Shown here in pieces: positions 42,561 to 62,435 of a stretch of DNA of 64,000 nucleotides. A model generated the notes under the pieces. It saw nothing but the letters and a program-made list of their open reading frames with translations. It had not been told where the DNA came from and did not search any database. Numbering within the stretch: position 1 is the first letter of the stretch; every line of letters starts with the position of its first letter. A program made the position numbers and the translations under genes. The stretch comes from Escherichia phage phiWec188, in the sequence record LC739537.1. One strand, 5' to 3'.

Positions 42561-42830
42561 TTACCAAGAAACATACATAGAGTAAACAAGATCATTACAG
42601 TCTGTCGAGAACGTAGCACTGCAACCTTGAGATCTTAATTTGTCACAAATCCCGCGTACAATCGAAGCTTGTAGTTCTTTACCTTGCGGTAGACCTAAAG
42701 CTTTCACTGGGTGTTGAATCTGTATGCTGTAGTAACCCTCTTCGGCTGCTGTTGTGATTAAGGTTTTTGCTCGTTGGATATACTCAAAGTTCACAGAGTC
42801 TGCCAAAGCGTGTAAAGAATATGCGTCCAT
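42561..42830 (-). CDS. hypothetical protein (89 aa)
   Basis: GAGGAGG RBS. Confidence 0.5.
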   Translation of the reverse strand: MDAYSLHALADSVNFEYIQRAKTLITTAAEEGYYSIQIQHPVKALGLPQGKELQASIVRGICDKLRSQGCSATFSTDCNDLVYSMYVSW

Positions 42831-42839
42831 GTTACCTCC

Positions 42840-43175
42840 TCAAGAACGATCGAGTTTCATTAAAAATACAATCATAGCTGCACGCAGGGGCTTATCGTCT
42901 CCACGGGACGGTACACCTTCTGTTTTCGCAAGCCAACCGCGAGGAAAACCATCTTCCCCTGTTACAGGACTGATACAAATCCTGTGTTTTACTATGATAG
43001 CCCAAGCATCTGCTGGATCATTGCAGTAATCATACCAAGTGTAATTGCCGTTGCAGTCATTTCCCACTGATCGTCCATCTGCATTGTGCGGATAACCTAA
43101 AGGCTTGACACCGTGGACTGCTGCAAACACACGCTTGTTGATTTCAAAATCACTCATTACTCCATATTCTGTCAT
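42840..43175 (-). CDS. NinX/DUF2591-like protein (111 aa)
   Basis: pattern ...FEINKRVFAA..G...DGRSVG...W.DYCNDPADAWAII...I...P resembles phage NinX family as I recall it. Confidence 0.35.
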   Translation of the reverse strand: MTEYGVMSDFEINKRVFAAVHGVKPLGYPHNADGRSVGNDCNGNYTWYDYCNDPADAWAIIVKHRICISPVTGEDGFPRGWLAKTEGVPSRGDDKPLRAAMIVFLMKLDRS

Positions 43176-56920: not shown

Positions 56921-57301
56921 TCAGGCTCCTTTACGATTATGCAAACAATCTTTCACTCGTTCTTGCACCCACTCTACACGAAGCTTGTTTTCATGCGCTC
57001 TGCTGTGGTTATACTCTCGCACATATTCTTCGTAGTTCACATTAAAGGGAACACTGACAGACAATCCTGCGCAACGGAATTGTTTCTTCATTTCTTTTAA
57101 TGTTGCATCACTTATGGCACAAAGCTGTTTTGCCTGTTCCTCACTGAAATTACGGTCCCACATCTCATCCCAGATAAAGGTATCCAAGCATACACATAAC
57201 CCATTCCTTGTGCGCTCTTTGGTATGATGATCAGCAAGCCAACTTTCATAGAAGGCTAACAACATTGGACTACTCAACGGAACATTTTTACTCTCTTGCA
57301 T
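56921..57301 (-). CDS. family-A small protein, paralog 9 of 9 (126 aa)
   Basis: LLAFYESWLAD...NGLCVCL...VPFN...HENKLRVEWVQERV; AGAGGAGATT RBS at internal ATG. Confidence 0.55.
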   Translation of the reverse strand: MQESKNVPLSSPMLLAFYESWLADHHTKERTRNGLCVCLDTFIWDEMWDRNFSEEQAKQLCAISDATLKEMKKQFRCAGLSVSVPFNVNYEEYVREYNHSRAHENKLRVEWVQERVKDCLHNRKGA

Positions 57302-58882
57302 GATAATCTCCTCTCTTGGTTTCATGACAAACATCGTAACTCTCAACGAGGAACATCTTACGATCAATCCTCGGCAATTACAATTCATTTATCATTGGTA
57401 TTCCCTATCAATTATTCCATATATACCTGTTATTTTTGACACCCCTTTGGTCAAATATTAATCGGCAAAATATCTGGGGGGAGAGATTATTTCGATACCC
57501 TCTGTTCCTGCGATTTATCGGCAAGAATATCATCGGCAAAGAGACAGAAAAGCCTTTGGTAGCAAGGATTTATGGCGAGTACGTCAGGACTGCTGAACGC
57601 GAATTTTCCGGCCCCTCCACTTCTGCGCGCCGGAATCTTCAAATATCAATGAGAATAATTATCATTATCATTCGCATTCAATAACTTAGGCGATCTTTTC
57701 CCCTGCTATAAGGTTGGGCCTAACTTAAGCACTACTTTTTAAACAATCCTTTATCAATCAACTACTTAACAACCTAAACATATGATTACTACGGTGTAAA
57801 GGTGCCGCCCATAACAGACTACCTATAAAATAAATGAGAATGATTATTATTCAGACAATTCTTACAACAAATCGACCAATAAATCAAGATTTTTCTGATT
57901 TTATTTACGTTTAAGAGAACGTGCTCAACATATCCGCCATAGGCGGCTATCTTTCCCCCGCAAACATTAAGCCTTTATCTTTCATCTTTCTGTATATCTG
58001 TACACTATGCAACCTGTCGCTATTCGCTCATGTTGCTACGTGCTAATCCTTCACCATGCTAATGATGATCACACTGAACGATAGTGATAACTCATGTAAT
58101 AATTACATTGATTATTATATTACGCTTAACTATTCTTACATACAATGCTAATAATAAGCCAGCGTAATTAGTGTAAGCGTAATACGCTTGCAATAATTGC
58201 AAGCTACATAATCACAAGAAATAACTATCACCGATAGTTATGATTGTGGGGGTGTAGTTGGCTTATTATTAGCTCGCTACGTGTCCGGCGTAGCGTGCTA
58301 ATGATGAGGCTTGGAATGATTCATTTTACAATTATTACAGTCTTCACTATTTCGGCAATAGGCACTATTTTACTAATAGTTGTTATTTTAATGATTTCAT
58401 TTGTTATCGTTAGTTAGTTGGTTGTTTTGTCGTGTTATCGTTATCTTGCTTAGTATTCATCATGGTTTGATTGTTTGTCGTTATCAATCATCTTTCTATT
58501 ATTCCTTTGATTATGATTAGTTTGCTTATTGTTTTAGGTTGTTGGTTGGTTAGTTGTTGCGAACTATTATCAACATTATAGTTATGCACTTATATTGCAT
58601 AGATACGCAAGGTTAGATGATAATGGTTATCATTGCACTGGAAAGGAGGAAAACAGCCTTTTTCGGTTGTTTGTTGTTGGTTGTTGATCGATTTTAACCG
58701 CTCTAAATAGCTCTCTAACAGCCTGTTGCCCTGGGAGGTATGGTTATTCGTTTGCTGGTTGATTAGCTCGATACCGCGATTTATTCATTTTTGTTCTGTG
58801 TCGGTTTTTCATAGGCGGAAGCTATCAACATTATTTGGACAAAAAGAAAGGGCGCTTAGTGCGCCCCTTGTTTTGTTGTCGA
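57302..58882. other. about 1.6 kb non-coding region: AT-rich, palindromes and direct repeats, followed by a GT-skewed low-complexity tract
   Basis: no ORF of 60 aa or more on the gene-bearing minus strand; palindromes near 58175-58204 (AAGCGTAATACGCTT, GCTTGCAATAATTGCAAGC) and 58221-58241 (ATAACTATCACCGATAGTTAT); repeated ATCGGCAA and GCTAATGATGA words; T/G-rich iteron-like tract about 58380-58700. Confidence 0.6.
58849..58873 (-). terminator. minus-strand terminator (GGGGCGCACTAAGCGCCC + TTTCTTT)
   Basis: GC hairpin + U-tract immediately downstream of gene 58883..59302. Confidence 0.5.
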
Positions 58883-59302
58883 TTATAAAGCTTCATAGAT
58901 TGAGTATATCCGGTTCGCCAGGTCATTACGAAAGCGGAATTTTTCATCACGTTTAATCATCAGATCCTTAAAACCGCATTCTTTCAATGCTTCGTTAACT
59001 TTACTGCGGCATACTTTCATATTGTCCTGCGCGTCACCAATAAACTTATTGCTATGATGCATTGCTTTGATCTCTTCTTCCAGGACCAGGGCAACTACAC
59101 GGATCGGATCAAGCTGATACGCGGTAACATCCATGCGGCATTGTAAACGGCTTTTAACGTCTGCCACCGGATATACTGCAACCTCTTCCCCGTCAACGTT
59201 CACGATAACCAGTTTACCATCAATTTCGAAGCCTTTAGCGGCGCTACCGTGACAAAAAGCGTTGTCGAAGGAGTAAGCTGGATTATTTGATTTAATGTTC
59301 AT
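58883..59302 (-). CDS. hypothetical protein (139 aa)
   Basis: long ORF; AAAGGA 9 nt upstream; own promoter upstream. Confidence 0.55.
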   Translation of the reverse strand: MNIKSNNPAYSFDNAFCHGSAAKGFEIDGKLVIVNVDGEEVAVYPVADVKSRLQCRMDVTAYQLDPIRVVALVLEEEIKAMHHSNKFIGDAQDNMKVCRSKVNEALKECGFKDLMIKRDEKFRFRNDLANRIYSIYEAL

Positions 59303-61869: not shown

Positions 61870-61932
61870 GAAGCGGGAACTATTCCCGCCCTACGTGGTA
61901 AATATTATCATATTGACGATCCGTGTCAATAG
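61870..61932 (-). promoter_or_regulatory. promoter-leader cassette (TTGACA-N16-TAATAT, CACGTAGGGCGGGAA-TAG-TTCCCGC hairpin)
   Basis: conserved GATCCGTGTCAATAG and CCCTACGTGGTAAATATTATCA elements. Confidence 0.45.
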
Positions 61933-62369: not shown

Positions 62370-62435
62370 TGAGCGGCACCATTGCCGCCCTACGTGGTAA
62401 ATATTATCACACTGGTGATCTGTGTCAATACTATT
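62370..62435 (-). promoter_or_regulatory. promoter-leader cassette (TTGACA-N16-TAATAT with TG extension, CACGTAGGGCGGCA-ATGG-TGCCGC hairpin)
   Basis: near-identical to cassette at 61.9 kb. Confidence 0.45.

Follow-up and report, generated by a model that had tools for sequence, protein, structure and literature searches.

A gene-free gap in an Escherichia phage of the subfamily Stephanstirmvirinae as a probable genome-end control region

The 64,000-nucleotide stretch of Escherichia phage phiWec188 DNA analysed here (sequence record LC739537.1; hereafter, the window) contains a gap of about 1.6 kb (57302–58882) that the first-pass annotation had put forward as a replication origin, packaging site, operator cluster or structured non-coding RNA locus. 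The best explanation for the gap as a whole, to which we assign a probability of about 0.6, is that it serves as a control region for the genome ends, at the concatemer junction, of a myovirus whose direct terminal repeats (DTRs) are short. Escherichia phage phiWec190 (LC739539.1, Stephanstirmvirinae) matches the window at 100% identity, the window being the reverse complement of its circularised record. The gap is bounded by the coding sequences (CDSs) 56921–57301 and 58883–59302, both on the minus strand, with zero CDSs annotated in between in either phiWec190 or phAPEC8, and equivalent gene-free gaps of 1.5–2 kb are found in the phages nieznany, ZCKP1, nepoznato, KKP_3264, Paula, phi1_175008 and KP13-26 as well as in the Vequintavirinae phage Av-05.

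Terminal repeat and predicted genome ends

A direct terminal repeat is predicted at 57595–57925 because the repeats of related phages align there and because the boundary cores are common to three phages. The ends of five records (Schickermooser, WPEC4, WPEC6, UAB_1 and phi92) fall at most 1 base from the homologue of position 57596, and in phi92 and UAB_1 a DTR is annotated at that homologous position. The left and right copies in phi92 (DTR-L and DTR-R) are identical and 343 bp each, and the ends of the Schickermooser record have 329 bp in common, the terminal repeat of this phage being reported as 328 bp (PMC6563267). Published values are 342 bp for BME3, obtained with PhageTerm (PMC12210895), and, for the rV5-like phage LL12, a terminal redundancy of 459 bp located within a non-coding region (PMC6658697). 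Over its full length, the Schickermooser repeat aligns to 57925–57596 of the window, and the final 93 bp of the phi92 repeat align to 57688–57596, finishing on the same base as the Schickermooser repeat. Furthermore, a GTTN^AGC(A/C) core (the caret marks the boundary) is present at both repeat boundaries in the window phage, Schickermooser and phi92, which belong to three genera; in the window, the cores are GTTG^AGCACG at 57925 and GTTC^AGCAGT after 57595 (context CGCGTTC^AGCAG). The left-boundary motif TTTAAGAGAA..GCTCAAC was seen in at least 12 lineages. Read along the minus strand, the left end of the virion chromosome is predicted to start at 57925 and the right end to stop at 57595. The suggestion that the gap contains a packaging site is thus supported by the presence of a homologue of the relatives' terminal repeats with conserved cut-site cores.

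The features at the repeat, and the predicted order of elements along the virion chromosome, are as follows.

57595–57925, unstranded: predicted DTR of about 331 bp, placed by homology and present as a single copy in the circularised assembly
57934–57946, unstranded: small hairpin CCGCC-ATA-GGCGG, 9 bp beyond the left repeat boundary and followed by a C-run
Virion map by homology, minus strand: left repeat, 293-bp leader, genes, last gene (59302–58883), terminator (58869–58847), about 960 bp of non-coding DNA, right repeat

In the mechanism that we propose, the repeat would be single in the replicating concatemers, terminase would cut at the GTTN^AGCA core on either side of it, and its duplication would follow, in the fashion of T7-type phages. 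The T7 concatemer junction likewise combines non-permuted ends, a short repeat and a non-coding arm in front of the right repeat. At its junction, T7 relies on an RNA polymerase of its own, an enzyme that the phage group of the window is not known to possess. The repeat of the window phage resembles those of other Stephanstirmvirinae (phi92, Schickermooser and BME3; 329–343 bp) and that of LL12 in homologous sequence, identity of the flanking genes and matching boundary cores; unlike these repeats, it is neither annotated in phiWec190 nor used to open the record of this phage.

The ends of the LC739539.1 record overlap by 148 bp (window 42764–42911). It was rejected as the biological repeat, since it falls within a CDS and reflects the assembly of a record opened at an arbitrary point. 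The hairpin outside the left boundary persists across lineages with differing stem sequences; in the phi92 group, it is missing or indistinct. In phage nepoznato (1208–1400), the left-boundary motif GTGCTCAAC occurs three times in tandem, with a hairpin downstream of each copy, an arrangement suggesting that the surroundings of the cut site were duplicated locally. In addition, the word CGCGA(A)TTT is found at 57598–57606, just within the right repeat boundary, and again at 58776–58784, in a block about 70 bp before the terminator that is conserved in all lineages; it may be a second recognition word.

The folded element and the right-end arm

Between the predicted right repeat and the last gene lies the right-end arm of about 960 bp, for which the following features were delineated.

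57926–58146, unstranded: variable spacer, less conserved (40–80% identity) than any other part of the gap
58147–58295, plus strand: conserved multi-helix folded element of about 150 nt, supported by covariation
58147–58161 with 58259–58273, plus strand: helix P1
58164–58170 with 58194–58200, and 58172–58180 with 58184–58192, plus strand: helix P2
58203–58209 with 58252–58258, plus strand: helix P3b
58212–58217 with 58244–58249, plus strand: helix P4b
58221–58229 with 58233–58241, plus strand: helix P4
58275–58282 with 58288–58295, plus strand: helix P5
58297–58846, plus strand: conserved C-poor, T/G-rich tract (A 0.23, C 0.14, G 0.21, T 0.43)
58847–58869, minus strand: intrinsic terminator of the last right-end gene (58883–59302)

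The perfect palindromes to which the first-pass annotation drew attention are present as described (AAGCGTAATACGCTT at 58175, GCTTGCAATAATTGCAAGC at 58186 and ATAACTATCACCGATAGTTAT at 58221), and all three are contained in the folded element. In this element, P1 closes a junction that holds the long P2 hairpin and an arm made of P3b, P4b and P4, and the P5 hairpin follows. The block 58147–58300 is conserved across genera, and the fold was examined in an alignment of 17 and subsequently 25 sequences, metagenome contigs included. For a four-helix model of 38 pairs, all 646 cells of the alignment are paired, and 12 pairs show compensatory changes. A fuller model of 60 pairs, prompted by the minimum-energy fold of the plus strand, has 94.9% of the cells paired in the 25 sequences and compensatory changes in 18 of the 60 pairs, the unpaired cells being mostly due to a one-column misalignment of the phi92 group; none of 500 shuffles matched the observed values, and sliding the partners reduced pairing to 25–50%. 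The segment 58140–58310 folds on the plus strand with z = -8.5 relative to shuffles.

The pairs also indicate which strand folds. They comprise 1115 Watson–Crick pairs, 72 G·U pairs when read on the plus strand and no A·C pairs, with about seven independent wobble events in P3 and P4. Because a cruciform or a duplex-binding protein would leave no such bias, the occurrence of G·U without A·C implies that a single strand folds, and this strand is the plus strand of the window, antisense to all flanking genes. The folding energies are -74.4 kcal/mol for the plus strand and -56.3 kcal/mol for the minus strand. The loop of P5 contains GTGTC, a recognition word of T7-type primases. A covariance model of the fold matches rV5-like contigs weakly (23–24 bits), at the equivalent place and strand, and the rV5-like counterpart folds into a long AU-rich closing helix and a GGGGGUG motif followed by a hairpin; the fold may extend across two phage subfamilies.

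Two further pairings were considered and abandoned. The P3 palindrome (GCTTGCAAT.ATTGCAAGC) was dropped as a separate hairpin because the positions of its 'loop' covary with 58164–58170, favouring the longer P2, and an alternative helix between 58259–58273 and 58296–58309 was rejected as it is lost in KP13-26-type phages. Two lineage-specific changes were observed in the element. In KP13-26, a second GCTAATAATACC word is located upstream of the core, no more than 140 nt from its anchor; the 5' arm of P1 may therefore have been duplicated in this lineage. In the P4 hairpin (58221–58241), the stem of which is palindromic, the loop reads ACC in the window and GGT in phi92-type phages; the whole hairpin appears to have been inverted in the latter, as expected of template switching at a palindrome.

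Downstream of the fold, the T/G-rich tract noted in the first-pass annotation is real: the GT-richest 300-nt windows of the entire 64 kb all fall at 58231–58401 (0.68 compared to a mean of 0.505, with a standard deviation of 0.041), and the C content reaches its minimum, 0.107, at 58381. The segment 58375–58850 is 90–100% identical among Phapecoctavirus and Wec-type phages, compared to only 70–80% for the flanking genes, and conservation of the arm likewise exceeds that of these genes. In other genera, the sequence of the tract diverges and the plus strand is still C-poor (6–15% C) in every lineage; the conserved islands left in it are the third of the Fur-box-like sites described below, a ATTTTAAGCGGTCTAAA block and a ATAACGCGATTTATTCACTTTT block. 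RNAalifold analysis of 17 lineages detected no conserved structure in the tract apart from the terminator, the stem of which is also followed by a plus-strand T-run in the window phage, a feature not shared by phi92-type phages or ZCKP1. The iteron-like units that had been perceived in the tract are weak: GTTATCGTTA occurs exactly only at 58403 and 58434, with degenerate 31-nt copies nearby, and across genera the repeats reduce to a recurring GTTAT core, so the tract is not a true iteron array. The word GCTAATGATGA occurs twice, as reported, its copies lying at 58058 and 58297.

In terms of function, the right-end arm would carry an element that works as a folded single plus strand. The reading that we prefer, a little short of even odds, is that this element is a putative untranslated RNA, transcribed inward from the right end and starting at or just upstream of P1, with the C-poor downstream sequence helping the transcript to escape Rho. 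RNA is favoured because the pairing is strictly kept, with wobbles only, because the architecture is branched, because the downstream sequence is of the C-poor, Rho-avoiding kind and because a -10-like hexamer adjoins P1. This hexamer, TACAAT (58141–58146, plus strand), terminates the variable spacer, which also contains TGCTAAT words; a -10-like hexamer adjoins P1 in 14 of the 25 sequences, representing 4–5 of about 10 lineages, against a background of about 7%. The main alternative, a tentative one that we hold to be clearly less probable, is that the folded strand is DNA acting in the initiation of replication or packaging; it is favoured by the position at the chromosome end, the T7-type replisome of this phage group (PMC3606486) and the GTGTC word in the P5 loop. 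The suggested structured non-coding RNA locus is supported in part: a covarying, strand-specific fold encompasses all three palindromes, and its strand may be RNA or DNA. Strand-specific multi-helix folds of about 150 nt are similarly found near replication or packaging sites in phi29 pRNA, ColE1 RNA II, the G4 origin and plasmid single-strand origins (sso); unlike these, the fold described here has no sequence or Rfam similarity, and any role in transcription, priming or packaging is putative.

A related and, in our view, doubtful possibility is that the right-end arm is a replication origin in which the folded plus-strand DNA would, on the lagging-strand template, serve as the signal by which primase or a primosome enters or, in a variant of this scenario, in which a plus-strand transcript would stay hybridised to the DNA along the C-poor tract and act as the primer for inward synthesis, in the manner of the ColE1, T4 and T7 origins. 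Such an origin would fit with the strand-specific fold, with a non-template strand that is richer in G than in C and C-poor in all lineages and with the location of GTGTC within the invariant P5 loop. Moreover, a gp4-like primase-helicase and a family A polymerase are among the gene products of rV5-type phages, and the skew of rV5 changes at 104425–105475 (PMC3606486), near the position of the LL12 repeat (PMC6658697). However, GTGTC is replaced by GTTTC in three lineages, DnaA boxes are lacking (none without mismatch), regular iterons are not conserved across genera, the G content is ordinary (0.21, with a single G5 run) and there is no adjacent initiator gene. The skew of the window is of no help in this respect: GC skew flips sign at about 36000, where gene orientation changes from plus to minus, and since it tracks the direction of transcription (the same remark was made in PMC3606486), it cannot locate an origin. 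An origin of the iteron type, as originally envisaged, is not supported, given the degenerate repeats that share only a GTTAT core across genera, the lack of DnaA boxes and the lack of conserved structure in the tract.

Fur-box-like palindromes and an IHF-like site

The repeat and the tract contain a set of short sites that match the binding sequences of host proteins. The references used were the 19-bp Escherichia coli Fur box GATAATGATAATCATTATC and the 7-1-7 form TGATAATnATTATCA.

57650–57664, unstranded: Fur-box-like palindrome 1, TGAGAATAATTATCA, one mismatch to 7-1-7, 55 bp from the right repeat boundary
57756–57768, plus strand: IHF-consensus site AATCAACTACTTA (consensus WATCAANNNNTTR), midway between the two repeat palindromes
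57835–57849, unstranded: Fur-box-like palindrome 2, TGAGAATGATTATTA, two mismatches, 76 bp from the left repeat boundary
58618–58632, unstranded: Fur-box-like palindrome 3, TGATAATGGTTATCA, one mismatch to 7-1-7

At the level of 15 of 19 positions or better, the Fur consensus is matched in the 64 kb only at 57651–57669 (minus strand, 17/19, overlapping palindrome 1) and at 58619–58637 (15/19), compared to 0.57 matches in shuffles; five of the seven matches of the window to the 7-1-7 form with up to two mismatches lie in the gap, where 0.68 would be expected in the whole window. For matches as good as the 17/19 site and the one-mismatch 7-1-7 sites at 57650 and 58618, shuffles yield 0.06 per 64 kb. 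The sites are homologous in nearly every lineage examined and are also present in the rV5-like and Av-05 gaps. In other lineages, phi92 and Schickermooser among them, palindrome 1 has perfect or one-mismatch counterparts at the corresponding location; the phi92 homologue of palindrome 2, TGATAATCATTATCA, is perfect (15/15, the window having 7-1-7 matches of 14/15); and palindrome 3 keeps its position, between +323 and +469 relative to the core anchor, in almost all lineages examined. The IHF consensus has nine matches in the 64 kb, and in 16 of 17 lineages the IHF-like core of the repeat retains both its location and its strand. The distances between the palindromes and the cuts are steady across three genera (76–78 and 55–59 bp) despite differing repeat length:

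Window phage: left cut to site, 76 bp; site to right cut, 55 bp
Schickermooser: left cut to site, 76 bp; site to right cut, 59 bp
phi92: left cut to site, 78 bp; site to right cut, 55 bp

Promoter-like hexamers overlap Fur-like sites 1 and 3 in the window phage, and the spacing between the -35 and -10 elements at these sites is not conserved across genera and is changed in Phapecoctavirus. Because promoter spacing at the palindromes is not conserved, we infer that the repeat palindromes and the IHF-like site belong to an end-processing assembly rather than to promoter operators. Cutting would be organised by a nucleoprotein assembly within the repeat, formed on the two 7-1-7 palindromes and a central, DNA-bending IHF site. 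Thus, of the operator cluster proposed in the first-pass annotation, the conserved palindromes and the IHF-like site were recovered, as sequence matches only. A comparable arrangement is known in lambda cosB, where repeated binding sites (the terminase R sites) and an IHF-consensus site (I1) likewise lie by the cuts; unlike in lambda, the ends of the present phage are repeats rather than cohesive ends, and the sites are palindromes that match Fur boxes, with putative binding. They also differ from the usual Fur boxes of E. coli in being located in the terminal repeat of a lytic phage, at fixed distances from the cuts and without conserved promoter geometry.

The palindromes could instead be true Fur operators on promoters that tie early transcription, and perhaps also a plus-strand transcript, to the iron status of the host, the rest of the gap being a leader. 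We consider this unlikely, even though near-consensus sites (17/19; 7-1-7 with no or one mismatch) occur nowhere else in the 64 kb, are kept in phages of Escherichia, Klebsiella, Salmonella, Serratia and Citrobacter hosts, and each contain a TATCAT -10-like hexamer, with promoter-like matches overlapping boxes 1 and 3. What is conserved at these sites is the distance to the cuts, whereas the spacing of the -35 and -10 elements varies between genera, and a literature search on Fur boxes in lytic phages gave nothing relevant. Besides, a main early promoter repressed by Fur would be a handicap in ordinary, iron-replete culture.

Other parts of the gap, comparisons and significance

The tract could alternatively be a transcriptional insulator of the minus strand, whose read-through RNA, A/C-rich, G-poor and unstructured, would be an ideal loading site for Rho, such that transcription would be kept from running across the repeat and into the early genes of the following genome unit. 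The minus strand indeed contains only 6–15% G over 550–700 nt in every lineage, the tract lies directly beyond the intrinsic terminator and conserved structure was not found in it. We nevertheless consider an insulator quite unlikely as the explanation, given that Rho loading requires composition rather than 90–100% sequence identity and that the plus-strand-specific fold would be left unaccounted for.

On the other side of the repeat lies the left-end leader:

57302–57594, minus strand: leader from the repeat to the first gene (ATG at 57301, ribosome-binding site GAGGAG)

Its block 57400–57450 is conserved across genera and contains an extended -10-like element, TGGAATAAT (57419–57411, minus strand), which we infer to be a putative promoter element; the sigma-70 scan found no strong site. 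The word TTGCCGAT (equivalent to ATCGGCAA on the plus strand) occurs three times in the leader and is lineage-specific; as the first-pass annotation had it, ATCGGCAA is found at 57461, 57517 and 57532, which are three of its five occurrences in the 64 kb. Inspection revealed no -10 element at the proper distance, and TTGCCGAT was accordingly rejected as the -35 element of tandem promoters. Elsewhere in the window, an 18-mer, ACGTGGTAAATATTATCA, occurs twice (61896–61913 and 62395–62412), about 500 bp apart, among small minus-strand genes and could represent a promoter or operator present in two copies for the genes of the right end.

The claim that the gap lacks a credible gene holds for phiWec190, phAPEC8 and the other relatives examined. 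Open reading frames (ORFs) called mechanically in the gap do not exceed 82 amino acids (aa), produced zero family matches in a PHROG search and are interrupted by stops or frameshifts in other genera. Covariance models from Rfam, applied at E-values up to 1 to 55000–61000, yielded a single chance match to a miRNA (E = 0.31), and no tRNA or tmRNA was detected. Comparison of 57926–58882 with 5,426 E. coli genomes produced zero matches, and a host-derived origin of this sequence was rejected on these grounds. The sigma-70 promoter scan gave 12 matches, compared to 8.1 expected, none of which is convincingly conserved, and Chi sites, DnaA boxes and enrichment of the T7-type primase word were scanned for and not found. 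It is highly improbable that the gap consists of small unannotated protein genes, for example, for hydrophobic peptides read off the T/G-rich strand, because although one related record annotates seven small CDSs in the gap and ORFs of 36–57 aa remain open in the nearest relatives, such ORFs are open only where the DNA is nearly invariant, gain 4–9 stops in phi92-type phages, lack ribosome-binding sites and PHROG matches, and show no codon pattern in their substitutions.

A sensitive search retrieved about 139 related phage records, and scans of IMG/VR recovered few relatives. The record with the seven CDSs, that of phage PsgM04F (3097–4570), has them on both strands; none is conserved in relatives, and they are probably over-calls. 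Records labelled Pseudomonas phage PsgM04F, Campylobacter phages B15 and A145 and Acinetobacter phage ABPW7 are 75–90% identical to these coliphages across the gap, so that their host labels look doubtful.

Several observations speak against the interpretation of the gap as a genome-end control region with a transcribed, folded arm. The ends of phiWec190 were placed by homology, its record being opened elsewhere and ending in the 148-bp assembly overlap; the binding of Fur, IHF and terminase is putative and deduced from sequence matches; and, because the sigma-70 spacing at the palindromes is not kept across genera, the role of the latter is guessed from position alone. The plus-strand transcript is a prediction: a conserved plus-strand promoter was not found in the phi92-type, KP13-26, Tr1 and L054 lineages, and a conserved plus-strand terminator was looked for and not found. 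The strand bias amounts to about seven independent events (p of about 0.01–0.02), DNA hairpins also tolerate G·T pairs, and the rV5-like matches are weak. Finally, the tract is extremely conserved yet lacks a detectable conserved fold. The most far-reaching version of the hypothesis would be that the right end of the Stephanstirmvirinae, and in diverged form that of the Vequintavirinae, encodes a new class of structured non-coding RNA, inwardly directed and antisense, which acts in end processing or the start of replication, while the repeat also recruits Fur and IHF as architectural factors for terminase cutting; this combination is speculative, and we doubt it more than we believe it.

Terminal repeats are known for the subfamily, and the 'non-coding' box of rV5 has already been noted (PMC3606486, PMC4591320). 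This box, of 2,604 bp, is likewise a large ORF-free gap in a related subfamily and lies at a skew change (PMC3606486, PMC4591320); in rV5-like LL12, the repeat is inside the box (PMC6658697), and rV5-like contigs contain the diverged fold at the same place and strand. It differs in that BLAST aligns only the upstream gene and the terminator and in the weakness of the match to the fold model. The literature found contains no description of the cut-site cores, the Fur/IHF-like layout, the covarying fold or the ultra-conserved C-poor tract, and the fold is a promising candidate for a new element acting in cis, whether as RNA or as single-strand DNA.

The records of phiWec190 and many related phages are opened at arbitrary points, and their true ends can now be placed by homology, which matters for phage engineering and for therapeutic-phage dossiers. 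How the ends of large myoviruses with short terminal repeats are recognised and duplicated is poorly known, and the region provides a compact list of conserved parts: cut-site cores, two palindromes at fixed distances, an IHF site and a covarying, strand-specific fold. If functional, the matches to the Fur box at the chromosome ends of lytic phages would connect phage maturation with the iron physiology of the host in an unexpected way.

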